A DNA stretch of 64,000 nucleotides from Candidatus Margulisiibacteriota bacterium (GTDB lineage: Bacteria > Margulisbacteria > Marinamargulisbacteria > JBFWNS01). The stretch is from contig JBFWNS010000003.1 of the NCBI GenBank assembly GCA_050250935.1, positions 1-64,000 of the forward strand. The letters run 5' to 3'. Position 1 is the stretch's first letter; the number at the start of each line of letters is the position of its first letter. Shown here one piece after another: positions 1,941 to 29,375 of the stretch. A program made the translations under genes and the position numbers. Below the pieces are notes generated by a model. The model ran no database searches, was not told where the DNA came from, and worked only from the letters and a program-made list of their open reading frames with translations.

Positions 1941-3518
1941 TTAGGCTTCTTTTTCTGGCAAGGTTGTGGCATTGCCGTCGCGGTGGGCTCTGTAGTGGGG
2001 GGACATGATCTCGATGCCATACTGGGCACAGGCATCTTGAATGTTTTGGTGAAGGGTGGAGTAGATTTCGGGTTGTTTATTGGCCTCTTGGGTATAGGCA
2101 TTGAGCTGATAGGATACATAAAAGTCGTTTAGGGCTGTTTGCAAAACAAAGGGTTCTGGGCTCGTGAGGATGTGCGGTGTTTTTGTGGCGGCGAAAATCA
2201 GGGCCTCGTGAACGGTTCTCCAGGGTGTGTCATAGCCGATGGTGACGGTGGTGTGAACAACCAAGCCCCGGTCTTTGGCATTGCTGCTGTAATTGATGGT
2301 GTGGCTGGTCATGATGGTCGAGTTGGGGACAGACACAATTTCGTTTTTGGGGGTTCGAATGCGGGTGACCAGCAAGGATTTTTCGATGATATCGCCTTCT
2401 GTTTCGCCAATTTTAACCCGGTCTCCAATCCGAAAAAGTCTCATGTAGGTTAATATCAACCCCGAGACGATGTTCGACAGCGAACTTGCAGATCCAAAAG
2501 TAAATAAAAAGCCCAAAAAAACAGACACGCCTTGAAACACCGGCGAGTTACTGCCCGGTAAATAGGGGAAAATCAGAACCAGCATAAACGCTGTTACCAA
2601 GATTCGGACAATTTGGTAGGTTGGGTTTGCCCAGTCTGCATAAAAATTAGGCAGTACCAAGGCCCCGGTTTCCAGCTCTGTTTTAAGGTAGTGAAGCCCC
2701 CTAAAAATGTACTTAAAAACCGTCACAATAATCAGAATGGTGATGACGTTTGGCAAATAGTGCCACACCGAAAACACAATATTCGACAAAGGGGTTAAGA
2801 CATAGCCCAACAAGGTGTCCGAAAAGCGGCGCGTCCAGGGTAAAACCCGAAACAACAACGGAAGCCCAAGATAGCTGATCAAGGCGATACAGCCCCATTT
2901 TAGAAGGGTAAGACCCGATTGTAACAACCGAATAATCTGCTCGATTTTGAGCAAGGTGTAGCCATTCACGGTTAAGGGCCGAATGCGTTTGCCTTGTTCG
3001 GCCAAGAGGGCCCGGTTTAAAAACCCAAAGAACCGCCAGATGACCCCAATCAAGGCAAAAATGCCCATGAGAACCCCACTGGCAACGGCGGATACCGCAA
3101 GCAGGTTTTTTTTGCTTGTTCCGGTTTGATAGTCGAGGACGGATTGGGTAATCCGTTTGGCATAGGTTTCGGCCAATTCCCGTTGGTCTTTTTGGCTTAG
3201 CAGGGCATCGTTTTTGGAAATACTGATGATGGTGAGAGTGCCAAGATTAATATCGATAAGCCCGTCTTCTTCCACCAGTTGAAGGGATTGTTGAGAGAAG
3301 GGTTTGGCATTTCCAAGATCGTGAATGCGTTTTGATATGGCCGCAGCCCGAGCGTCTGGCCCAAAGCTTCCAGACTTGGCATAAATATCGAAGAGTTTTT
3401 CGTGATAAAACCCATAAACAGGATAACCCGTTGGCTGGATTTCTTCTTTTGCAAACAGGGCGCTGCCCAAGCAAAGGGACAGAACAATGGCCATGACGAG
3501 GCTAAATCGTTTTTTCAC
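1941..3518 (-). CDS. MscS-family mechanosensitive channel with N-terminal periplasmic domain
   Basis: Several TM segments; SNIVSGLIL..RLFRIGDRVKIG..GDI..VPNS core; IEIMSPHY. Confidence 0.9.
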   Translation of the reverse strand: MKKRFSLVMAIVLSLCLGSALFAKEEIQPTGYPVYGFYHEKLFDIYAKSGSFGPDARAAAISKRIHDLGNAKPFSQQSLQLVEEDGLIDINLGTLTIISISKNDALLSQKDQRELAETYAKRITQSVLDYQTGTSKKNLLAVSAVASGVLMGIFALIGVIWRFFGFLNRALLAEQGKRIRPLTVNGYTLLKIEQIIRLLQSGLTLLKWGCIALISYLGLPLLFRVLPWTRRFSDTLLGYVLTPLSNIVFSVWHYLPNVITILIIVTVFKYIFRGLHYLKTELETGALVLPNFYADWANPTYQIVRILVTAFMLVLIFPYLPGSNSPVFQGVSVFLGFLFTFGSASSLSNIVSGLILTYMRLFRIGDRVKIGETEGDIIEKSLLVTRIRTPKNEIVSVPNSTIMTSHTINYSSNAKDRGLVVHTTVTIGYDTPWRTVHEALIFAATKTPHILTSPEPFVLQTALNDFYVSYQLNAYTQEANKQPEIYSTLHQNIQDACAQYGIEIMSPHYRAHRDGNATTLPEKEA

Positions 3519-3604
3519 AGAAAACAGGTACTCCTTTGCGAGGTTGTTTTGAGAGGGGGTGACGATAGTATAGCCTAAGATGTTCTAGATTCGTATATTG
3601 GAGC

Positions 3605-4228
3605 TTAAGCAGTTGCCAGATAGGCTATAAGCGGACCATGGGTAGGTTTGTTCAATAGTGGTTCAGCTTCTTCGATGGTTAAGACCCTATAAACCAGGGC
3701 AACCAGTAGTTTTTGTTCGGATGGGTGTTTCTGAAATTGGGCTAAAATACTTTCTTTAAGTTGGGTCTTGAGGGTTTGAAATTCTGGGTTGTTTGGAAAA
3801 CGAATGGCATCACAGGAAACTTGTATGAGGGTTATATCTGGAAGATTTATTGCCTGAGTGAAAGCTTGATCGCATGTCGCTTGCCAAGCTTTTAAGTCGG
3901 CACCTGTTAGGGCTTCTGTTGAAATAGGGAATTCTGCATTGGTAGAAGCTAGGGTGAGGATGTCCTCGTTGCTTAAAGCCCTTAGATTTCTTGCAAGAAC
4001 AGGGACTAGGTCCGAGGTTAGGCTGATTGGGTCTTGGGTTGTTTTTAAGGCAGACTGTTGTTTTTTGGGGGTAGTGGTTTCTTGGGTAGTGGGTTTTGTA
4101 GCCCGGTCTTCGATAAATTGGCGGACCATTGGCCCCAGTATACGCCATTCTTTTTGATCAAAAAGCGTTTGGAGGGTCTGTTGTTCGGCTGTGAGTAGGC
4201 TGGTATGGGCAAGGTGTTTTTTCTGCAT
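3605..4228 (-). CDS. Hypothetical protein (orphan-like)
   Basis: 207-aa ORF filling the gap; no recognised motif. Confidence 0.6.
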   Translation of the reverse strand: MQKKHLAHTSLLTAEQQTLQTLFDQKEWRILGPMVRQFIEDRATKPTTQETTTPKKQQSALKTTQDPISLTSDLVPVLARNLRALSNEDILTLASTNAEFPISTEALTGADLKAWQATCDQAFTQAINLPDITLIQVSCDAIRFPNNPEFQTLKTQLKESILAQFQKHPSEQKLLVALVYRVLTIEEAEPLLNKPTHGPLIAYLATA

Positions 4229-4265
4229 GGGTTCTGGACTTTCTATTGTAGCGTTTCTGCTATAG

Positions 4266-4292
4266 TTTTCGGCTAAAATCTGGAAAAATTGC
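4266..4292 (-). promoter_or_regulatory. Putative sigma28 (FliA)-like promoter
   Basis: GCAATTTT-N11-GCCGAAAA, compared with the enteric consensus TAAAGTTT-N11-GCCGATAA. Confidence 0.45.
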
Positions 4293-4318
4293 AGAATTTT
4301 TCCAAGTATTTTTGAAGT

Positions 4319-5173
4319 TTATATCAGTAAGGAAACCCCGATCAGGGCCATTAGACCCCCCACGGCGGTGGGCCAAGCCAGGGTTTCGCCCAAAAGCAGC
4401 CAGGCCAAAAAGGCGGTGCAGGTGGGAATCATCAGCATAAAAGCGGTGCTGGTTTTGGGTCCCAATTGTTGGGTTCCCAAGAAAAAAACAGAGGTGGCAA
4501 ACAAGGTGCCGAAAAGGGCCATAAAACCCATATTGCCCCAAAAAAATGGCCCCAAATGGACCGCTGCCAGCATGGACTCTGTCGGGGTTCCCAGCGCAAA
4601 CAAGGGTATCACCAAGGCCATCATGTAGAACGTGTGGACGATAGGGTTGAGACGCACTTTTTGGCTGGCAATCGACAGCACAGCCCAGGCAAACGCGGCG
4701 AGCACAAAAAAGCCGGTTCCCGAATTTAAAAATTCTGTCCAATTGAACCGCCAGACCCGAAGCATTAGGCCTGCCGAAAGCACCCCCAATCCCAGTCCCA
4801 GGAGTTCTCTTTTTCGAAGCGATTTTTGGTGGATTAGGGCGACTAAGCCAAAGGTGATGATGGGATTTAAGGTCGTGACCAAAACCCCGCCGGTTCCCGC
4901 CAATCCCAGGTGAATGCCCTTGAAAAATGCCCATTGGTAGAGACCCATTAATAAACTGGTAATCCCCACCATGATCCATTGGGAAGGGGGGATTTTAAAG
5001 GAGATTTTTTGCCAGAGCAAAAACACAACAAACACCAGTGCCGAAACCAAAAACCGATAAAACACCAGGGTTTGGCTCGGCAACAGGGGGGCAACCCATT
5101 TGGCTGCAATCCAGTTGCCGCTCCAACAGATCATGGCCAGCGCTAGCAGGACGTGGCTGGTTTGTTTAGTCAA
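4319..5173 (-). CDS. EamA/DMT family transporter
   Basis: About 10 TM helices in two repeats; ICWSGNWIAAK; LAWLLLGE. Confidence 0.9.
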   Translation of the reverse strand: MTKQTSHVLLALAMICWSGNWIAAKWVAPLLPSQTLVFYRFLVSALVFVVFLLWQKISFKIPPSQWIMVGITSLLMGLYQWAFFKGIHLGLAGTGGVLVTTLNPIITFGLVALIHQKSLRKRELLGLGLGVLSAGLMLRVWRFNWTEFLNSGTGFFVLAAFAWAVLSIASQKVRLNPIVHTFYMMALVIPLFALGTPTESMLAAVHLGPFFWGNMGFMALFGTLFATSVFFLGTQQLGPKTSTAFMLMIPTCTAFLAWLLLGETLAWPTAVGGLMALIGVSLLI

Positions 5174-6452
5174 ATTTCCAGCTTAGGGCCAAAGAGGTGA
5201 AGAGGGCAGAAGAGCGTGTGCTGTAGCTGACATCGGTGTTATCAGGAGCGCCAAAGGATGTTTTGCCGGATTGGGTGATGGTGTTACTCAAAACATAGGC
5301 CACAGAGGCATCCAGACTCAGCCGTTTGTTAAAGCTCATCCCCAAACCGGTGGTTAGAATGTGTTCGCCAATCACAGCGCCCATTCCGGCGGTGTTAAAA
5401 AAGGCGATGTTAGAATCCAAAAACTGAGCACCCCCAAACGAATAGCCTCCGTTGGTCGCGCTCAGGTTGCTTTTGTTGGGTATTACCGAAGGGGCATAGT
5501 TATAGCCGAAGCGCAACGCCAGGCTGTTGCTGACATCGTATTGTGCACCCAAGGCCAAAGCAGTTTGGTCTCGCCACAACAGGTTTTTGAACCCTTTGGC
5601 TTGGGACCAGAAAATTTGTTTAATATCAGACGTTAAACGCCATTTGCCCAGGGTGGCCGAGACGCCAATGCCAACCTCTGCTGGCAGTTCGAGTTCCAAA
5701 TTGTCGTAGGTGCCGTTGCGGTCGAAATCGAAAATCTGTTTAAAATTAAGGGCGACTGGCGACAAATAGCTAGCCCCCAGAATAACCGCGTCGTTGAGTT
5801 GGTAGCTGCCCCCAATCTGATAGCCAACAGACAAACTGTCCGACAAGCCTCCACTGCGTTGTTGGGTGGTTTCTGGAGCTCCGGTTTGATCGGGCATTTG
5901 GGCTGCAAAGTTCAGCAATCCGTAGGTGATGTGGGTCGAAAGTCCGAATCCCCAAGGGCCGGTTTGAACCCCAATGGCGGGAACCAGTTTTAAGGCCATC
6001 ACATGGGATCGGATATCGGCAAAATAGGGACGACCACGCTGATCCAACCCAAATCCAGAAGTCGCAAAAAGTCCCAATCCGAATCCAACCGTTTCGTTCA
6101 ACGGCGTAATAATGGCCACATCGGGAATGGCGAAGGCCGTGATGTTGCTTTTGACATAGCCCGTGTCTGCAGTTAGAGCGCCGCCAGTATAGTTGACCCT
6201 GGCTTCGGGGCTGAGTACGGCATAGGTGCCGCCGAACACCACCGTCGTGGTTTGGTAGCGTGGCAAAAGGGCAGGGTTTTTAACAATGGATTCCGTACCG
6301 TTTGGGTTGGCAATCCCAGTGCCGCCCATGGCAATCGATTGCGGGGTAAGGCCAATTAAATTCGCGCCATTGGCCAACAAAGCAGTACTCAAACTCAAAA
6401 AAATCCCAACCACAACAAGGGTCAAAACTGTGGTTCGTTGCAACTGTGCCAT
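5166..6452 (-). CDS. OmpP1/FadL-family outer-membrane transporter for hydrophobic compounds
   Basis: Signal peptide; AMGGTGIA and KNPA hatch motifs; LRFGYNY; aromatic C-terminal strand. Confidence 0.85.
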   Translation of the reverse strand: MAQLQRTTVLTLVVVGIFLSLSTALLANGANLIGLTPQSIAMGGTGIANPNGTESIVKNPALLPRYQTTTVVFGGTYAVLSPEARVNYTGGALTADTGYVKSNITAFAIPDVAIITPLNETVGFGLGLFATSGFGLDQRGRPYFADIRSHVMALKLVPAIGVQTGPWGFGLSTHITYGLLNFAAQMPDQTGAPETTQQRSGGLSDSLSVGYQIGGSYQLNDAVILGASYLSPVALNFKQIFDFDRNGTYDNLELELPAEVGIGVSATLGKWRLTSDIKQIFWSQAKGFKNLLWRDQTALALGAQYDVSNSLALRFGYNYAPSVIPNKSNLSATNGGYSFGGAQFLDSNIAFFNTAGMGAVIGEHILTTGLGMSFNKRLSLDASVAYVLSNTITQSGKTSFGAPDNTDVSYSTRSSALFTSLALSWKFD

Positions 6453-6510
6453 GCGCTATCCTTTTACAAGAGGTGAATTTTTGTAAATTGTAGCATGCTC
6501 TAGCCTCGGG

Positions 6511-7428
6511 TCAAAGAAAAGGTTGGCTTTGATTATTTTTGAGGAGCACAGCAATCTGTTTTCGGACTTGGAAATCGGTTCTGCTAGACCCAAAAGCTCT
6601 TGCCATTTTTGCCCATGCATTGCTTTTTCCTTGAGCGTAAAACGCCTTATAGATTTTTAAAAGATGTTTATTTTCCTCTTGTGTCCAAGAACCCCCTTTT
6701 AATTCTGGATCTAGTTTATTAGCCCACCTTTCCAAGCATTGCGCGGCAGATCGGGGGAGTTGTGTAAGCTTTCTTTGGGCCAATTGATGGGCAATTTCTG
6801 ACCACTTTAATGTAGGTTGGTTACGAATTTCTCGAAGGGAATCGTCTTCTGCTTTGCTCCATTTTTCGTGGCAACGTGGCTCTAGGGCCCTGATTCGGTG
6901 AAGGCATTGAGAGGGTTTTCGGGTTCCTACAGCTTGGCTGATTAGGTGCCATTGGGTTCCATATTGTTGGTGGGCGACCTGAAGTCGTTGGGTTTCGTCT
7001 TCTGTCCAAGGTCCTGAATTGTTGCCATCCTTGTGGGGTGCTGGCTGTGGGGCGCTGGCATGATGTTGCTTTGCTGCTCTTGTGGATGGTGCTGTTTTTG
7101 TTCGTTTGCGTGAAGCAGTTTCTTTGGTTGTTTCGGAATCAGAACTGGAAGCTGAATCGAATGTTTCAGAAGCTGCTAGTGCAGAGAGTAATTCGTTGGC
7201 TTGTAGGGCTGCTTTTCGTTGGGGTCTTGGTGTTGGTTGTTGATTCTTTAGGTCAGAGGCTGAGGGTTGCTCGGTTTGGTCTTTGTGAGGGGAGGAAGTT
7301 TCGGTGCCGGCATTCAGAATTGCAAAGATTGCCCTGATTCCGCTGTCGTCAGGCAATATTGGAAGGTCCAATAAATCTGGAAGGTCAAATTCAAAATTGG
7401 GTGTTGAAATGTGTTTGGTTAAGCTCAT
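6511..7428 (-). CDS. Eukaryote-like three-repeat Myb (R1R2R3-type) DNA-binding protein
   Basis: Three Trp-spaced repeats: GPWTEDET..YGTQWHLIS..RKPSQC; KWSKAEDD..KWSEIA..RSAAQCLERWANKLDP; GSWTQEEN..AWAKMA..RTD. Start taken at ATG 7428 (305 aa). Confidence 0.85.
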   Translation of the reverse strand: MSLTKHISTPNFEFDLPDLLDLPILPDDSGIRAIFAILNAGTETSSPHKDQTEQPSASDLKNQQPTPRPQRKAALQANELLSALAASETFDSASSSDSETTKETASRKRTKTAPSTRAAKQHHASAPQPAPHKDGNNSGPWTEDETQRLQVAHQQYGTQWHLISQAVGTRKPSQCLHRIRALEPRCHEKWSKAEDDSLREIRNQPTLKWSEIAHQLAQRKLTQLPRSAAQCLERWANKLDPELKGGSWTQEENKHLLKIYKAFYAQGKSNAWAKMARAFGSSRTDFQVRKQIAVLLKNNQSQPFL

Positions 7429-7433
7429 ACAAA

Positions 7434-7460
7434 TTATCGGATGGGTTAGGGTAAAATTGC
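7434..7460 (-). promoter_or_regulatory. Putative sigma28-like promoter of the Myb gene
   Basis: GCAATTTT-N11-TCCGATAA, 5 nt upstream of ATG 7428, which would give a leaderless mRNA. Confidence 0.45.
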
Positions 7461-7489
7461 AGGGTTTGAAGTTTTTTCTTCTAGTCCAT

Positions 7490-9736
7490 TCAAACTTCCA
7501 CCGGTATTTGCAACGCAGAGGCAGCACTGTGTGGTGTAGGCTGCGTATTCAAAGCGGATGCGGGTAGGGTTGGGGTGGGGTGCTGAGCGGATTTTTTTCG
7601 CGAACACAAAATAGCGGCTGCAATGATAGCTGCCAGTGTTACCCCACCTAAAATTACAGGAAGGGCAATCACAAAAAACGAATTGTCTTCACAGCCAAAC
7701 GACAAAAGCCGATTGCCATCGACGGGGGTAAACAAGTCGTCGGCTTGATCAAAAGGCGTGTTGGGCAGTTCGATGGTTCGCGGGCCTTGGCCTTCAGTCC
7801 AGAACTGTAGGCGGGTTCCCTGGGGTGTGGCCCAACCGGCAACGTCGACTGGGCTTCCTTCCATCGACGTGATTTGCCAACGCTTGTCGGGTTGTTCGGC
7901 GCTACGCCAGGTCCAACCGCCCGTTGTAAATTGCAAATGCAAGGGGCCGTTGTGAAAAATTGTGGCTGTGGTGTTGGCATAGTTGGCACCCAATCCCAAT
8001 CGAACCAAGGTTGGACAACGGCCAAATTGAAGGGTTTGGTTGACAGGGGCATCGTATAACAGGGTGGCGGATTCTGGGCCTTGAAATGTTCGGACGGGGT
8101 TGTCGGGCATGCCGGAAAAGATGTGTTGGGTTCTACGCTCCAATAGAGAGATTGCATAGACTATGGAAGGCTTACTGTTTTGCCAATCGTTTTGGGTGTG
8201 AAAAATGGTGGGGCTGTTGCTTAGTGCCCTCATATCGATATCGGAGCTGTCGATTAAACGATTTGAAGGTCGGTCTGTGGCCAAGATAGCGACCGGTTCA
8301 TTACGGTCAAAATTGGGGTTAATACCATAGGTAAGTCGTAGAAGTTGAAGATCTAGCGGACGAGGCGTTTCGGGATAGATACGAAGATTCGTGTTGGGAT
8401 CATACTGGGTGGGTCGTGATGAATCATCATAATAGGACATCATGGTTTGGTCGGTGAGTCCGTATAACGGAATTGGGTGATTAAAGCCTAGTGCATGTTC
8501 TATTTCATGCGCAGCCGCCAGCGCATTGTATGTTCCGGGTGCAAAAGAGGTGGCATCGTCAATTAGGGCTCTGTTGAAAAAGACCCGGTTTAATCGTTGA
8601 GATACAAAAGTGTTTGCCAAAGCAGGGTAATCGACCGTGTTGGAAAGTCCAAAGCACAAACTTTCGCGTGTGGGTGTTTCAGCCGGCTGAAAAGAAAGGG
8701 CAATGTGCTCTGAAAACCAACCCAGGACGCCTGAAATTTGTCTTTGCTGTTCGGCAGAAAAGGAAGTTGCACTGGGGTCGTAGATTCTGCAAGCCGAGTC
8801 CATATGGGAGACGTCGAAAGTATAGGTGTAATTTGTTGTGGGAAATGCTGGGTTTCCGCCTACGCGGGTGGCTGTTAACATGCCCAGGCTTTCCATATAT
8901 TCGAGGGTTCTTGGGTCTGGAAAATCGATGCCATCGCGGGGAAAGGCTGCCCAGAGTTTTGGTGCTGTCGACCAAGGACGCAGATCGCCCACTTGAAAAC
9001 CCGTTTCAAAAAGGTGGGTGTTGTCGGCCCCTTTTTCTATCATTTTTTGAACCACTTCGGGGGTCATTTCGGTGGTTTGAAGGGCTTGTTTTAACGGGGT
9101 GGTATCTGCGGGATAGCCGTTGTTTAAATCGGGGTTAAAGTCCAAAATCGTCTGCGCCACTTCGCGGCTGGATTGGCCAATGGCTAGGGTTACCATAGCG
9201 GGTGTTAGGAGGTCTTGGTCTTGGGTTAAAATGTCCCTGACAGCCGTGGCATTGCGATTTCGAATGGCTGTTTCCAGTTCCGAAGAAGAGACAGTTTCCA
9301 CTGTTTTAGGCGGCATTGGTTCAGGAATGGGGGCGTGGTGGGATGCTACAGCGCTGTGATCAGCTGGTGGAGAGTATCCTTCGATCGGAAATCCGTGGGG
9401 CATCGGTGGCGTGGTTACAAGCGATGGCGTCTCTATGTGGCCGTTCTGAAACGGAATAGTCAAAGGTCCACCGGGGGTGTTGGCCAGTAGCCCGCCTTTT
9501 CCCAAAGACGTGCCCACCGCCGATAGCGACGCATAAATTAAATAAGCCGTCGCCGCGGCTGCAGACCCACCCAATAAAGCAAGCGCTGCTGTTGAAGCGG
9601 TGGGGTTGACCCTGTTTCTGCCTGTTGCTCTGGCAGAATGGTTTGGGGTTTTAGGTGGCCTTGATGGCCGGATTGTTTGGGCTTCTTCGCCAATCCTTTT
9701 GTGGTGATTTGCAGCAAGTTGGTTTACGAGTCTCAT
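7490..9736 (-). CDS. Ankyrin-like repeat plus M10/serralysin-like metzincin protease with C-terminal TM (paralog A)
   Basis: TPLKQAL..EVVQKMIEKGAD ankyrin-like segment; HEIEHALGFNHP zinc motif; Met-turn TMMSY; PLDLQLLRLTYG; TM followed by CSRKK. Confidence 0.8.
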   Translation of the reverse strand: MRLVNQLAANHHKRIGEEAQTIRPSRPPKTPNHSARATGRNRVNPTASTAALALLGGSAAAATAYLIYASLSAVGTSLGKGGLLANTPGGPLTIPFQNGHIETPSLVTTPPMPHGFPIEGYSPPADHSAVASHHAPIPEPMPPKTVETVSSSELETAIRNRNATAVRDILTQDQDLLTPAMVTLAIGQSSREVAQTILDFNPDLNNGYPADTTPLKQALQTTEMTPEVVQKMIEKGADNTHLFETGFQVGDLRPWSTAPKLWAAFPRDGIDFPDPRTLEYMESLGMLTATRVGGNPAFPTTNYTYTFDVSHMDSACRIYDPSATSFSAEQQRQISGVLGWFSEHIALSFQPAETPTRESLCFGLSNTVDYPALANTFVSQRLNRVFFNRALIDDATSFAPGTYNALAAAHEIEHALGFNHPIPLYGLTDQTMMSYYDDSSRPTQYDPNTNLRIYPETPRPLDLQLLRLTYGINPNFDRNEPVAILATDRPSNRLIDSSDIDMRALSNSPTIFHTQNDWQNSKPSIVYAISLLERRTQHIFSGMPDNPVRTFQGPESATLLYDAPVNQTLQFGRCPTLVRLGLGANYANTTATIFHNGPLHLQFTTGGWTWRSAEQPDKRWQITSMEGSPVDVAGWATPQGTRLQFWTEGQGPRTIELPNTPFDQADDLFTPVDGNRLLSFGCEDNSFFVIALPVILGGVTLAAIIAAAILCSRKKSAQHPTPTLPASALNTQPTPHSAASALQIPVEV
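9446..9736 (-). repeat. 291-bp 5' module, copy 1 of 2
   Basis: Near-identical to 11942-12232 and of equal length. Confidence 0.9.
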
Positions 9737-9742
9737 GATGTT

Positions 9743-12232
9743 TTATACTTGGCTTGATCCTTGTTCTGGGATTGTATCGTCTTCGGTTCTATCGGTTAGG
9801 GATCCATCGGATAAGGCAGTAGGTTTTGTGATTATTGTTCCATCGTTGCCACTGTTTGTAGGGCTCTCGGCTTGTGTTTTAGTTGCTTCGTTTTCATTGT
9901 CGTTATCCGAAGCAGAGGTAAGGGTTCTTAGGGCAATATCTACCGGCGCATATGCAGTTTTGGGTTTGCAAGCGCGACATACGATGATGGTAATCACGAT
10001 TCCCAAAAGGGCCACGCCAGACAGTGCAAGGGGTAGGGCAATGTTTAGTATATCGGTGTCTATATCAGTGTCTGATGGATTCGATGGTTCTGAAGGCGTG
10101 CAAGGGAGTTGATAAAAATCCAGGGTATTTCCGATGCCCCTAAATAATGAATCGGCATTTTCGAAAGAAATGTTTGGCAATGCAATCGAACGGAAGCCAG
10201 AGGGACTAACTTGAATTTGAAGGGTTGTTCCGGGGTGGCCTGGCCATCCTGCAATTTCGACTGAAAAGCCTTCTGTTGAATTGATGGTCCACAGTTTTAC
10301 GGGTGTGCTGCCTTCCCAAGGGTGGGCAGCTCCCAAAACTTCCAAGTGCAGTTGAGACCCATAGAGGGTATCGAGAGTTTGGTTGTGTTCTGGACCGATT
10401 CCCAGTCTGACCAGTGCGGGACACCCAAATGAAAAGGTTTGGTTTACTGGGGCATCGTGAACAATGGCTGGTGCAGAAGGCCCTATCAAGTTCGTTACGG
10501 GGTTGTCTGGCATTCCCGAAACACTTTGACGCGTGTATGCGTAAGGATCCACCCCGCGAGTTACTCCGATCACGTTGGAGGCCTTGCTATTTTCCCAGTT
10601 GTTTTGTGTATGCCAGAGGACGGGGTCAGTGAGTCCGCTTAAATTTAGTCTAGAGCTGTCTATTAATTCATCGGATCCATAGTTGTCTATCACGTTGACC
10701 TCGCGGTTTCGATCGATTGGTCCAAGCCCAAACCATTGCCTAAAAATCAAAAGATCAGCAGGTCGAAGGGTTGATGGAAAATAAAATTGAGGGATATTGT
10801 AGTAGCCCATGACGGTTGCCCGGTTTTCGTTGTAAAGATCTCTAGGGTGTGTTAATGCTGGAAATTGGTGCCCCATTTCATGGAAGCAGGCCAAGTAGTT
10901 GAACTCTCCTGGCCTAAAAGTGCTGTTTAAATCGATTTTTTCAGGATTAAAAAAAATTCTGCTTCTGCCACTCTGGGTTGTGTAGTCAATCGGGAATTGG
11001 GCCTCTGCTAGGGCATAGGATGGTGTTTTTCCAATTCCCCAGCATAGGCGGGCGTCGCTTGCTGTGTCGGTCTCAAGGAAAGATAATCCAGTATGGTTTC
11101 CAATCCATTGCATGGTTAATCTTATGCCAGCTTGTTGATCGGGACTGAATGATTGGGCGTTGGTGTCGTATTCTTGACAGGGAGAGCCATCGCTTGTTGC
11201 ATCAAAGGTATAAGGGACGATGGTTTGGTCCGACCGAATTGGAACACCAAGGTTTGAAAGCGTTCCCAACGTTCTTAAATAGTTCAAGGTTTCTGCATCT
11301 GGAAAAGGTACGCCTGTCCTTGGAAAAACAGTCCAAAGGCCCAGTGTATCGACGCGCAATTGCAGGCCATTTTCAAAAATATCGCTCTTATCGGCCCCAA
11401 GTTCAATCATACGGCGTATAATCTCGGTTGGTAAATTAAAGTAGAGGGCCGTTTCCAGCGGTGGGGGGTCTAGGCTTTCATGATCGTTAACATTTAAGTT
11501 TAAGTCTAGCAGGGTTGAAACAATCTCTGGGTTCGAAACCCAAAGGGCAAAATTCAAGGTGTTTTTTTCTACAAGTTCAGGATGCTCGGTTACAAGCGTT
11601 CTAACCCCTTGTGCATCTTTAACTAGTATAGCCATTTTTAGAGGTGACTCGCTAATCTCTGGCAGTGAAAATCCAGATCGAGGCGAAGGATTGTGGGGAT
11701 GAAAAACATCGTCGATGGGACCCGTTTCTTCCCAACTTCGGCCTGGAGGAATCGTTTTTGTGTTTAATTCGGTGGTTGGTCGATCCACTGGAAGCGTTAA
11801 AGCGGCTCTTGTGGGTTTTGGGGTTCTTGTTGGTGGTGGGGGGACTTTTGCGTGGCCCCTAGGGTTTGTTGCTAATCTGGTTGCATTTTGATCGAACAGA
11901 TCTAAGGGATTGGGTTGATGGGTTAATAACGCGGCGGGATCCTGAAACGGAATAGCCAAAGGTCCACCGGGAGTGTTGGCCACTAGCTCCCCTTTTCCCA
12001 AAGACGTGCCCACCGCCGATAGCGACGCATAAATCAAATAAACTGTTGCCGCGGCCGCAGATCCGCCCAATAAAGCAAGCGCTGCTGTTGAAGCGGTGGG
12101 GTGGACCCTGTTTCCACCTGTTGCTCTGCCAGGATGGGTTGGGGCTTTGGGTGGCTTTGATGGCCGGATTGTTTGGGCTTCTTCGCCAATCCTTCTGTGG
12201 TGATTCGCAGCAAGTTGGTTTTCGAGTCTCAA
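9743..12232 (-). CDS. Ankyrin-like repeat plus metzincin protease with C-terminal TM (paralog B)
   Basis: TTG start after AAGGGGA; PPLETAL..EIIRRMIELGAD; HEMGHQFPALTHP; Met-turn TVMGY; TM followed by CRACKPK. Confidence 0.8.
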   Translation of the reverse strand: MRLENQLAANHHRRIGEEAQTIRPSKPPKAPTHPGRATGGNRVHPTASTAALALLGGSAAAATVYLIYASLSAVGTSLGKGELVANTPGGPLAIPFQDPAALLTHQPNPLDLFDQNATRLATNPRGHAKVPPPPTRTPKPTRAALTLPVDRPTTELNTKTIPPGRSWEETGPIDDVFHPHNPSPRSGFSLPEISESPLKMAILVKDAQGVRTLVTEHPELVEKNTLNFALWVSNPEIVSTLLDLNLNVNDHESLDPPPLETALYFNLPTEIIRRMIELGADKSDIFENGLQLRVDTLGLWTVFPRTGVPFPDAETLNYLRTLGTLSNLGVPIRSDQTIVPYTFDATSDGSPCQEYDTNAQSFSPDQQAGIRLTMQWIGNHTGLSFLETDTASDARLCWGIGKTPSYALAEAQFPIDYTTQSGRSRIFFNPEKIDLNSTFRPGEFNYLACFHEMGHQFPALTHPRDLYNENRATVMGYYNIPQFYFPSTLRPADLLIFRQWFGLGPIDRNREVNVIDNYGSDELIDSSRLNLSGLTDPVLWHTQNNWENSKASNVIGVTRGVDPYAYTRQSVSGMPDNPVTNLIGPSAPAIVHDAPVNQTFSFGCPALVRLGIGPEHNQTLDTLYGSQLHLEVLGAAHPWEGSTPVKLWTINSTEGFSVEIAGWPGHPGTTLQIQVSPSGFRSIALPNISFENADSLFRGIGNTLDFYQLPCTPSEPSNPSDTDIDTDILNIALPLALSGVALLGIVITIIVCRACKPKTAYAPVDIALRTLTSASDNDNENEATKTQAESPTNSGNDGTIITKPTALSDGSLTDRTEDDTIPEQGSSQV
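11942..12232 (-). repeat. 291-bp 5' module, copy 2 of 2
   Basis: Near-identical to 9446-9736. Confidence 0.9.
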
Positions 12233-16113: not shown

Positions 16114-16935
16114 CTATCCTACCTGAAGCACTGCAGGAGACCAAGTTATTGGGTGTTTAATCGATGGGGTATCTGGATGTTCTATTAAGGTAAGTCTTCT
16201 TTTAGCATCGGCTACGAGTGTTTGTATATCGGTTGATTTATTTGATCGGAGACTGTCGGCAAGTTCTTGAATCAGTGCTGAGGTGCGCATCTCTGTTATT
16301 TCAGCAAAGAGTTGACGAAATGAGCTGCTGTTGTTGATATGATGAAAGATTGTAATGATGTTGGTACGTGTGAGGTTCGAATCTTCTGGGCGTATTTGTT
16401 TAGACAATACTTTGGGCAGTGCCGAAATTTCTGTTAATGCTAGAGTGCTTATGGCTTCGATCACCAAATGCCGATCTTCTACGGGAGCCTCTTTTAGGGC
16501 GGTTTCGGCTGCCTTGCAAACGCCTACTCGGCGTTTATCACTTAGGCTAAGGACTGTATCTAAAAGCTTGGTGCTTAGATGGGTTTCTGGTTTGTGCACG
16601 TTTCGCAGTGCATTTCTAAGATCATCAGCCATTTGAATATCTATTATTGGCGATCTATCCCTAAAAACTTTTAAGAAGGCTATGACAGGTGCAAAGGCAT
16701 AGGGTTGAGGAAAAAATTCGCTAAGAATGGTTCGGATAAGGTTAAGGGAAGTTTCAGGGATTGATGAGATGACTTCTCGGATCGCTTCTCGCTGATCGTC
16801 GGGAATAACGTTGGTGTAAATTCCATTAAAAAACTGATTTAGGTCTGGGGCTTTTGAAACTTGGGTGTCGTATCCGAGATCGGGAGGTGTTTGTGGTGCG
16901 TTTGCTGGGCTTGAAATCCATTTTTTTGAAATCAT
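16114..16935 (-). CDS. Hypothetical helical protein (orphan-like, S/P-rich N-terminus)
   Basis: 273-aa ORF with SD GAAGGAG; AT-richer than its neighbours. Confidence 0.65.
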   Translation of the reverse strand: MISKKWISSPANAPQTPPDLGYDTQVSKAPDLNQFFNGIYTNVIPDDQREAIREVISSIPETSLNLIRTILSEFFPQPYAFAPVIAFLKVFRDRSPIIDIQMADDLRNALRNVHKPETHLSTKLLDTVLSLSDKRRVGVCKAAETALKEAPVEDRHLVIEAISTLALTEISALPKVLSKQIRPEDSNLTRTNIITIFHHINNSSSFRQLFAEITEMRTSALIQELADSLRSNKSTDIQTLVADAKRRLTLIEHPDTPSIKHPITWSPAVLQVG

Positions 16936-27821: not shown

Positions 27822-29375
27822 ATGAAAAACTATGATGTTGCGGTGATTGGTGGGGGAATTAATGGCGCTGGGATTGCCCGAGAATTGGCCTATCGGGGGC
27901 TTTCGGTGGCCTTGTTTGAACAAGATGATTTTGCGGCCCATACCAGCTCGGCGTCTTCCAAGATGTTGCATGGCGGCCTGCGCTATTTGGAACAAGCCCA
28001 GTTTAAATTGGTTTTCGAGGCTTTGCATGAGCGGCTTCAACTGCTGAAAATGGCCCCACACTTGGTAAAACCGTTGGCTTTTGTGTTGCCCATTTATAAA
28101 AAAGGAAGGCGCCCCGCTTGGTTGTATCGGTTTGGGGTTTGGCTTTACGATCGTTTGGCCGGTAAAGCCAATTTTGAAGAACATGTGTGGTTGTCCAAAG
28201 AAGCGGTTCTGGCCCAGTTTCCGGGCCTAAAAGCCGAGGGGTTGATGGGGGCCATTCGCTATTGGGATGCCCAAATGGACGATGCCCGTTTGTGTTTGGA
28301 AAATGTATTGCAGGCCCGCCAGTTTGGAGCCGATGTGTTTAATTACACCTCTGTAACCCAGGTTTTGCCCTGCGAAGGTGGGGTGTCCCTGACCCTGTCC
28401 CCCCGTTCTGGGGAAGGGTGGTGTGTGGTGGCCAAAGAAGTGGTGCTTGCTACGGGGGCTTGGGCAGATCAAATTTTGGTGGGCAAGCACCACCCCGTTC
28501 GCCCCAGTAAAGGCATCCATGTGGTGGTGAATCGACCGGCACCGGTGGATGCCTTGGTTCTGGAATCGCCTACCGACGCCCGTATTTTCTTTATTCTACC
28601 CTGGCAGGGCTTAACCTTGATCGGTACCACCGACGCCGATTACGCGGGAGATTTAAGCCGGGTTCAGGTCAGCCAAGACGAGATTCTGAGCTTGCTTGCC
28701 GAGGCCAATGCCCATTTGGACGATAGCCTGTCCCTTTCGGATGTGATCAGTGCTTTTGCCGGTCTAAGGCCCTTGTTGTCTTCGGTTGGAAAATCTACGG
28801 CGGGTTTAAGCCGAGAACACCGGTTCAGCAAACTGTCGCCCCATCTCTGGATGGTTTCGGGTGGCAAATACACCACCTATCGTTTGCTGGCCGAAACTGT
28901 GGCCCAGAAACTGTGGTCGGTGCTTGGAAAAACCGAGCCCTTTGCCGATGCAAAATCTCTGCCCCTCTATGGCGGCGAAATGGTGTCGGTTCGGGATCAT
29001 TTAACCCGATTTTCATCCGACGACTTGGATTTGTATTCGGTGTCAAAAGAAGTCTATGGCCGCATTTTGCGTCGCTATGGCAGCGCCTATCCCCAAGTGT
29101 TGGAACGGGTTGTCGGAGCACCAGATGGGCAGATGCCCCTGGGGACCACCGAGTATGTGGTGGGCGAGGTGATCTATATGGTTCAAGTCGAGATGGCCCA
29201 AACCTTGTTGGATGTTTTTAGACGTCGAACCGTTTTGCTGCTTTTACCCGATCATGGACGCTCTGCGCTGGAAAGTGTTTTAAAAATCATGGCCCATCAG
29301 CTAAACTGGTCCGACCAACGGCAAGCCGAAGAGCGGGCCGCCTACGAGGAAGCCATCCATGATTTTATCCGATAA
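27822..29375 (+). CDS. glpD: FAD-dependent glycerol-3-phosphate dehydrogenase
   Basis: VIGGGINGAG, TSSASSKMLHGGLRYL, DDARL, GLRPL, GGKYTTYR. Confidence 0.93.
   Translation: MKNYDVAVIGGGINGAGIARELAYRGLSVALFEQDDFAAHTSSASSKMLHGGLRYLEQAQFKLVFEALHERLQLLKMAPHLVKPLAFVLPIYKKGRRPAWLYRFGVWLYDRLAGKANFEEHVWLSKEAVLAQFPGLKAEGLMGAIRYWDAQMDDARLCLENVLQARQFGADVFNYTSVTQVLPCEGGVSLTLSPRSGEGWCVVAKEVVLATGAWADQILVGKHHPVRPSKGIHVVVNRPAPVDALVLESPTDARIFFILPWQGLTLIGTTDADYAGDLSRVQVSQDEILSLLAEANAHLDDSLSLSDVISAFAGLRPLLSSVGKSTAGLSREHRFSKLSPHLWMVSGGKYTTYRLLAETVAQKLWSVLGKTEPFADAKSLPLYGGEMVSVRDHLTRFSSDDLDLYSVSKEVYGRILRRYGSAYPQVLERVVGAPDGQMPLGTTEYVVGEVIYMVQVEMAQTLLDVFRRRTVLLLLPDHGRSALESVLKIMAHQLNWSDQRQAEERAAYEEAIHDFIR

Follow-up and report, generated by a model that had tools for sequence, protein, structure and literature searches.

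A eukaryote-type three-repeat Myb gene in a Candidatus Margulisiibacteriota genome: a candidate effector of a filament-less flagellar export apparatus

Introduction

The first 64,000 nucleotides of contig JBFWNS010000003.1 of the Candidatus Margulisiibacteriota assembly GCA_050250935.1 (this whole stretch is called the window below) carry, among bacterial genes, an intact gene for a eukaryote-type protein with three tandem Myb repeats (P0001, the Myb protein below; 305 amino acids, minus strand, 6511..7428, with its ATG at 7428). A promoter-like motif that is enriched in the same genome lies immediately upstream of it, and that genome has a flagellar export and basal-body gene set in which no flagellin, FlgK or FliD was found. 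We think it rather probable, as far as sequence can tell, that the Myb protein is a mimic that is exported through this flagellum-derived type III apparatus to the nucleus of a eukaryotic host, probably a protist, and binds DNA there at non-classical sites. Nucleomodulins, eukaryote-like effectors and flagellar export are each already known kinds. A previous reading of the stretch, made from its letters without database searches (the sequence-only reading), had proposed a nucleus-directed effector acquired from a protist or algal host; that proposal gains from the shared promoter, the filament-less export apparatus and parallels in Chlamydiota described below, and gives way, at the level of prediction, on the DNA specificity (YAACKG); as to the donor it gains no support.

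The Myb gene and its product

The 6511-7428 frame is uninterrupted and without introns in translation of the open reading frame (ORF). Its product matches Pfam family PF13921 with an E-value of 9e-25 (87.1 bits, cut-off 22.9) and PF00249 with an E-value of 2.3e-22 (79.3 bits, cut-off 24.4), in both cases in three stretches; the R2 repeat taken singly falls slightly under the PF00249 cut-off. The sequence-only reading had suggested HMMER comparison with these same two families, and both scores are far above the cut-offs; its description of an intronless ORF with three tandem Myb repeats among bacterial genes is thus correct, and the segments it quoted (QCLERWANKLDPELKGGSWTQEEN, AWAKMA, RTD, RPQRK and SRKRTK) are all present in the translation. 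The tandem repeats are each about 52 residues long and together span about residues 139-296, which is the 3R-MYB arrangement. The top sequence match in the PDB is c-Myb R1R2R3 (1h88, E-value 8e-15, residues 140-289), and the next matches are v-Myb, B-Myb, SNAPC4 and CDC5/CEF1. Where taxa are recorded, the Atlas neighbours are without exception eukaryotic Myb clusters, with a model-to-model template-modelling score of about 0.7. A single-sequence AlphaFold model of the repeats was of unusable quality (mean predicted local distance difference test score, pLDDT, 42.8).

The part of the protein outside the repeats, residues 1-135 (44% of its length), is of low complexity and rich in serine, threonine and proline (43 of the first 134 residues) with basic clusters, as the sequence-only reading had described it. 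From N- to C-terminus the layout is as follows: a short motif shared with other proteins of the genome (MSLTKHIST, 7402..7428, minus strand), which fits M-x(0-7)-[KR][HWFY][ILV][SA] and is a candidate export signal; an acidic-hydrophobic patch, recognized in the sequence at residues 12-28 (7345..7395, minus strand), which we liken, as an assumption of ours, to a eukaryotic activation domain; an S/T/P-rich linker; RKRTK at residues 107-111 (7096..7110, minus strand), which fits K[KR]x[KR] and is a candidate monopartite nuclear localisation signal; and the three repeats. By inspection there is no hydrophobic leader. Basic clusters with four of five residues basic occur in 44 of 417 ORFs of similar size in the genome, so a pattern like RKRTK is found in about one ORF in ten.

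All three repeats are encoded on the minus strand: R1 at 6874..7014, R2 at 6700..6873 and R3 at 6541..6699. The canonical tryptophans are kept at seven of nine positions, and the third one is isoleucine in R1 (Ile179) and in R3 (Ile292). Both R2 and R3 contain short insertions, that in R2 being seven residues long. Lysines 128 and 182 and asparagine 183 of c-Myb are named as key for recognition of AACNG in the portion of PMC3240579 considered here. In the Myb protein these three positions are Ala229 (in R2), Arg289 and Lys290 (both in R3), and the position of c-Myb N179 is Phe286; Lys290 and Ile292 were placed by extending the alignment without gaps. Cys231, Arg234 and the WANKLDPE linker between R2 and R3 are retained, and basic residues outnumber acidic ones across the repeats (27 K+R and 16 D+E). 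By its sequence the protein resembles a Myb-fold DNA-binding unit, yet it lacks the residues that would give it the specificity of c-Myb. Because the base-reading residues are altered (K128 to A, K182 to R, N183 to K), binding to YAACKG-type sites, which the sequence-only reading had suggested as assay targets, is unlikely, and an assay on YAACKG alone would mislead, since it would probably be negative even with a working protein.

The same residues bear on a different explanation, that the exported protein is a protein-binding decoy that titrates co-factors belonging to Myb, SANT or CDC5-type proteins of the host. The replacement of K128, K182 and N183, the insertions in R2 and R3 and the presence of SNAPC4, CDC5/CEF1 and SANT proteins among the matches would all suit a decoy. 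On the other hand, the net basic charge of the repeat region, the retained C231, R234 and WANKLDPE linker and the fact that the three tandem repeats match the DNA-binding c-Myb best speak for a unit that contacts DNA, and we regard the decoy as unlikely.

A sigma-28-like promoter and the gene set that shares it

One line of evidence for export is the promoter. A sigma-28-like promoter, TGCAAT-N15-CCGATA, lies at 7435..7461 on the minus strand and ends 6 nt ahead of the ATG at 7428. This distance favours ATG 7428 over a possible GTG start at 7527 (rejected because the promoter would then lie within the extension) and would imply a leaderless transcript. The region 6300-7700 contains no sigma-70 promoter-like site for the Myb gene and no minus-strand terminator-like site. 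We take the -10 box of the motif to resemble the sigma-28 consensus.

Orphan genes of the source genome (G000) with low codon adaptation often start alike (MSLTKHIS, MFTKKHLA, MHHKWLSV and MPNYKFIS), and their upstream regions share TG[CA]AAT-N15/16-[CT]CGATA. In a loose form of the motif the two boxes are 15 nt apart at 65 sites and 16 nt apart at 36 sites, compared with 6-21 sites at each of 16 other spacings. The strict form has 41 sites in the genome and none with the reversed control. About 70 sites stand above background, mostly ahead of orphan or eukaryote-like genes, and the strict form exceeds its control in 26 of 27 genomes of the class that are at least 85% complete (the class being equated here, by our own assignment, with Marinamargulisbacteria). 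With a held-out matrix, trained on 32 sites from which the test genes, the Myb gene included, had been removed, the Myb site ranks 7th among 1647 ORFs. Three of four mitochondrial-carrier genes rank 39-49 on the same scale, two of them having already been in the earlier promoter lists.

Among 62 genes picked by hand for promoter, motif or low codon adaptation, 40 have no Pfam family. The 22 with a match include three Mito_carr proteins, Armadillo repeats, ART, Pkinase, two P450s, an ABC1+M48 protein and MORN, together with ordinary enzymes. Individual members can be located as follows: with the promoter or the N-terminal motif, ADP-ribosyltransferase-like, kinase, two P450, PEP-carboxylase-like and terpene-synthase-like genes at G000:C2:9740-11089, C8:14721-16277, C2:212181-213830, C5:157850-159454, C1:468292-471609 and C7:35312-37081; and, under the same promoter, an Armadillo-repeat protein (judged from its top five Pfam rows) at C4:158966-160021, whose N-terminus looks F-box-like by eye. 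At least five genes of the genome belong to the mitochondrial-carrier family (C3:137792-138946, C4:48809, C4:43189, C4:1989 and C8:18709), and Mito_carr matches are found in 14 of 27 genomes of the class (see also loci L068-L079).

The basal-body cluster of the genome contains a sigma factor of the FliA/WhiG family, with TIGR02479 as its best match (E-value 7e-36); its gene is at G000:C1:320589-321266. A second, divergent sigma factor lies directly after flhA (G000:C5:127897-128544) and is another candidate reader of the motif.

A flagellar export apparatus without a filament

The source genome has genes for type III export of the flagellar kind. They encode FlhA, FlhB, FliP, FliR, FliM, FliN and FliI (FliQ was recognized by eye), FliF, FliG, FliE, FlgA, FlgB, FlgG, FlgH, FlgI, FliK and a short FlgE-like protein. 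The export and basal-body genes lie at G000:C1:313602-325032, C1:412511-413776 and C5:117578-128544. Flagellin/FlgL, FlgK and FliD were not found in this genome, and the positive controls were detected. Two further losses that were considered did not hold: the export ATPase is present as FliI, and the FliG_C domain, the torque domain of FliG, was found elsewhere in the genome. FlgB, FlgC and two FlgF/G-like rod proteins (C1:315238-316913 and 321263-322083) have by eye Sec-like signal peptides, which are unusual for rod subunits.

The pattern is common to the class. FlhA is found in 49 of 55 genomes (all 18 of high quality) and FliI in 26 of 27; flagellin/FlgL was found in one of 55 (none of the 18 of high quality, the sole hit being in a bin of 500 contigs) and FlgK in none of 27, with controls detected. 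An export apparatus that is conserved without its filament, in company with many eukaryote-like genes under common regulation, is most readily interpreted as a machine for delivering proteins.

A possible needle subunit was also noted. An 87-amino-acid protein (G000:C5:133123-133386; L008:3124-3387), found in 27 of 55 genomes of the class, is predicted to fold into a hairpin of helices (pLDDT 69.5), and language-model features liken it to needle subunits (Atlas 0.93; 22 of 30 hits are PF09392). In most of nine loci from relatives its gene is followed by one or two genes for proteins of about 110 amino acids and then by a large conserved gene, and in genome G023 it is present in three tandem copies. 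The genome has one secretin gene, which has no assignment to the apparatus.

Precedents for parts of this arrangement exist. In Campylobacter, according to the parts of PMC9856085 used here, sigma-28 drives non-flagellar proteins, and effectors are exported via the flagellum. The ancestor of the injectisome is proposed, in the portion of PMC3459982 consulted, to have been a secretin-less, SctF-bearing flagellar derivative. In Margulisbacteria themselves, one member lives inside cells of Trichoplax and was screened for secretion systems (both from portions of PMC6784892); the main texts of PMC6784892 and PMC6349859 contain no mention of flagella.

Distribution of tandem Myb genes in bacteria

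The Myb gene is single-copy in the source genome, and among 146 genomes of the phylum PF13921 and PF00249 matched in that genome alone (0 of the 145 others). In a control set one of 14 genomes, Bacillus subtilis, was matched by the Myb model. Broad conservation in free-living bacteria as an ordinary regulator, which the sequence-only reading had named as a finding that would count against it, is not seen as far as these two sets of genomes reach. No NCBIfam or PHROG family matched the protein, so it is not among the prokaryotic Myb-like families in those collections, and the lack of a PHROG match led us to reject a phage Myb-like family. Exact-word searches for relatives returned only the protein itself and nothing from phages, plasmids, viral contigs, 40 related genomes or a first scan of genomes; because such searches require exact words, they do not show that relatives are absent.

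In a metagenome scan a single Myb locus turned up (L080), apparently eukaryotic and split by introns; it was chosen by a shared 8-mer and is therefore biased towards similarity. Aligned with the Myb protein in two rows (41% identity), this locus led to a Myb gene of an uncultured Chlamydiae, on a contig of 3.1 Mb. PF13921 is matched in 13 of 400 Chlamydiota genomes at an E-value of 1e-6 or below (one more genome was unscored), and one of these genomes (G146), the one to which the 3.1-Mb contig belongs, has 81 Myb-repeat matches. It carries an array of Myb-repeat genes encoding up to 825 amino acids (G146:C1:1210500-1229500, locus L146; see also L147-L149), in which the scaffolds are nearly identical and the recognition-helix letters vary. 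Several chlamydial Myb proteins share the layout of the Myb protein, that is, a low-complexity N-terminus, basic clusters and C-terminal repeats. A basic cluster with four of five residues basic occurs in 27 of 37 chlamydial Myb proteins, as against the 44 of 417 ORFs of the source genome given above, a contrast that is weak because the genome compositions differ and some rows are near-duplicates. One chlamydial Myb gene has, by eye, two repeat-protein genes beside it, the first for leucine-rich repeats with a start resembling an F-box and the second for PPR-like repeats (L110:5141-6340 and 7395-8306).

With 0 of 145 other genomes in the phylum and 13 of 400 in Chlamydiota, tandem Myb genes are rare in the bacteria searched and recurrent in an intracellular phylum. 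Such genes are less unique in bacteria than the sequence-only reading implied. No placement was obtained for the proposed donor, a protist or alga: a tree of 21 rows, one of them eukaryotic, has one supported branch of 18 and carries long-branch warnings. Identity of the Myb protein to every Myb found is about 25-41%. In the literature searched, in which few subscription papers were covered, no bacterial effector with a Myb domain was found.

These data also bear on two explanations in which the protein does not act in a host. The first is that it is a regulator of the bacterium itself, a domesticated Myb in the sigma-28-like regulon that is never exported. Myb-like domains do occur in bacteria, as the B. 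subtilis control shows, and the promoter set goes beyond effectors, some of its members having N-termini that resemble signal peptides or the look of housekeeping genes. We nevertheless judge this decidedly unlikely: the protein has no NCBIfam or PHROG match, the gene is absent from the 145 other genomes of the phylum though the motif is class-wide, the 135-residue low-complexity N-terminus bears the shared motif, and the Atlas neighbours with recorded taxa are all eukaryotic.

The second, which we rank next below it and consider improbable, is that the gene is a recently captured eukaryotic fragment decaying without function. It is known from a single genome with no orthologue found, its G+C content at third codon positions (GC3, 0.345) is at the 3rd percentile and its codon adaptation at the 5th percentile of 614 ORFs, and two tryptophans and the base-reading residues are altered. 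Low GC3, however, is common to many promoter-bearing orphans, the frame is intact and intronless, identity to every Myb found is only about 25-41%, and the gene has both a top-ranking native promoter and the native N-terminal motif.

Genomic setting and assembly

The source genome is a 1.95-Mb bin that is 95.85% complete and 0.16% contaminated, and the window is the beginning of a 250-kb contig in it. The 16S gene of the genome lies at about 23-24.5 kb on G000:C1. A Pfam scan of the window's ORFs, which reaches position 29375, shows bacterial genes on both flanks of the Myb gene (FadL-like, EamA, MscS, LeuA and DXS). Positions 3000-9524 lie within a single contig of run X1, unbranched and 8,023 nt long, which has a depth of 18.3 and agrees with the window without differences or gaps. 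If, as may be, X1 is the source sample, this contig is a test of the assembly and not a second, separate find. In run X2, from the same study, a 231-nt piece falls inside the Myb gene at a depth of 2.4, like the X2 pieces on neighbouring genes. One low-depth X2 contig has A for G at window position 7051, a synonymous change (Ala codon 126) that may be an error. An assembly chimera or eukaryotic contamination, which the sequence-only reading had raised for the flanks, can be set aside as extremely improbable: although the stretch is known from one study and the spanning contig may derive from the source sample, that contig runs at a single depth from the gene into bacterial genes to its left and right, X2 has part of the gene at its neighbours' depth, the gene bears the genome's own promoter motif, and contamination of the bin is 0.16%.

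The gene directly upstream of the Myb gene (7490..9736, minus strand, 748 amino acids) is a candidate effector with a serralysin-like metalloprotease stretch and hydrophobic segments near both ends of its product; the product matches no Pfam family, and its match to NF035945 (E-value 2e-4) is far under the cut-off. The next gene (9743..12232, minus strand, 829 amino acids) is its paralogue, with 39% identity, and is preceded by the same promoter in variant form, at rank 63 of 1647. The first 98 residues of these two paralogues (7490-12232) are nearly identical, and ankyrin-like helices are seen in them by eye. On the other side, an orphan of 207 amino acids (3605..4228, minus strand) has the same promoter type (rank 35 of 1647) and the N-terminal motif. 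A 273-amino-acid orphan at 16114-16935 has the N-terminal motif and no high-scoring promoter.

Proposed mechanism and points against it

If the Myb protein is an exported mimic, the following steps may be envisaged. The FliA-family sigma factor of the basal-body cluster would read the motif and switch on the gene set; the S/T/P-rich N-terminus would serve as the export signal; RKRTK would take the protein into the host nucleus; the basic R2-R3 unit would bind DNA with altered specificity; and the acidic patch might then recruit host co-activators, or the protein might compete with host Mybs.

A number of observations weigh against this scheme. Expression, export, localisation and DNA binding of the Myb protein are predictions, and no orthologue is available with which purifying selection could be tested. 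Two core tryptophans have been lost. FliA is a candidate reader, its pairing with the motif depending on likeness to the sigma-28 consensus, and the FliA-family sigma factor scores 124 against a TIGR02479 cut-off of 189.6. One mitochondrial-carrier gene has no promoter site, three ankyrin genes rank only 82, 274 and 570 of 1647, and the flagellar structural genes compared do not rank high (short FlgE-like 213, needle-like 222 and FliK-like 1129). The N-terminal motif is present in 13 of 41 promoter genes and in 26 of 1606 others, a difference that is partly circular because those very genes had served to define the motif. Among carrier genes from 11 relatives, several of them with uncertain starts, there was no strict match to it, one loose match and no promoter, and a class-wide signal of this kind was rejected for that reason. 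As to the apparatus, MotA/MotB-like genes and the FliG C-terminal domain are present, the needle likeness is not significant by Pfam (23 members), PDB profile or Foldseek (MxiH at rank 10, E-value 2.0), and no translocon was identified in the genome. Finally, amino-acid synthesis genes are retained, so that an intracellular life of the bacterium is not shown, and a nucleotide translocase was not found, but its positive control also gave no match. A surface-attached or predatory life is possible.

Significance

To reprogram host transcription, the bacteria known to do so mostly employ proteins with bacterial repeat folds or chromatin enzymes. Capture of a eukaryotic transcription-factor domain and change of its base-reading residues would be another route, seen in two unrelated phyla. 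From the promoter a list of candidate effectors can be drawn up at once for a lineage without cultured members, and the genome pattern throughout the class suggests a life on or in eukaryotic cells for these bacteria in general. The apparatus is also of interest for the origin of injectisomes: rod, rings and stator are kept, the filament is absent and a needle is possible, which is near the intermediate proposed in the portion of PMC3459982 mentioned above. We offer, tentatively and with less confidence than the reading of the Myb protein itself, a wider idea: throughout the class the flagellar basal body may have become a filament-less injector that has a needle-like subunit of its own, either as an injectisome that arose independently or as an intermediate still alive, and the late flagellar sigma factor may have been put to new use in an effector regulon. 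The Myb protein would be one cargo of this injector. Together with the proteins of Chlamydiota, it would also be the first example of a recurrent class of captured eukaryotic transcription-factor effectors with rewired DNA specificity.

Comparison with known systems

The Myb protein resembles c-Myb and the 3R-MYB proteins (PF00249, PF13921, 1h88) in its three tandem repeats, in tryptophan spacing and in the QC.ERW.N.L.PE.K..SWT.EE linker. It differs from c-Myb in that the repeats are C-terminal, behind a low-complexity region, in A, R and K at the positions of K128, K182 and N183, in the replacement of two of nine tryptophans, in the R2 and R3 insertions and in being encoded by a bacterial gene. 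Its closest parallels in bacteria are the Mybs of uncultured Chlamydiota (G146, G334 and G522), which are likewise bacterial and intronless and several of which share the low-complexity N-terminus, basic clusters and C-terminal repeats. However, these are about 25-34% identical to it and form no supported clade with it; they occur in arrays in G146, whereas it is single-copy, and Chlamydiae have a true injectisome where the source genome has a flagellum-derived apparatus. Bacterial proteins of the Myb/SANT-like type, such as RsfA, and their phage counterparts also have a Myb-like helix-turn-helix in a prokaryote, but the Myb protein has no NCBIfam or PHROG match and its nearest neighbours are eukaryotic.

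The regulation and export proposed here are most like those of the Cia, Fed and FspA proteins of Campylobacter jejuni, non-flagellar proteins under sigma-28 promoters with flagellar export of effectors (PMC9856085, in the parts cited above). Campylobacter keeps a motile filament, whereas flagellin, FlgK and FliD were not found in the source genome, and the gene set of the latter is rich in eukaryote-like domains. With injectisomes the genome shares an export core with its ATPase, a ruler of the FliK type and a hairpin protein that is a candidate for a needle-like subunit. It departs from them in keeping the FlgB/C/G rod, the FlgH/FlgI rings, FliE/G/M and MotAB, which are listed as flagellar parts in the consulted portion of PMC3459982, and in having a sole secretin that is not tied to the apparatus and no identified translocon.

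At the level of the effector itself the comparison is with nucleomodulins (see PMC8112483) such as the TAL effectors, Ehrlichia TRP120 and Anaplasma AnkA, which act on host transcription. The logic proposed for the Myb protein (an export signal, a nuclear localisation signal and DNA-binding repeats) would be the same as theirs. Those proteins use bacterial repeat folds, whereas the Myb protein would use a captured eukaryotic transcription-factor fold.

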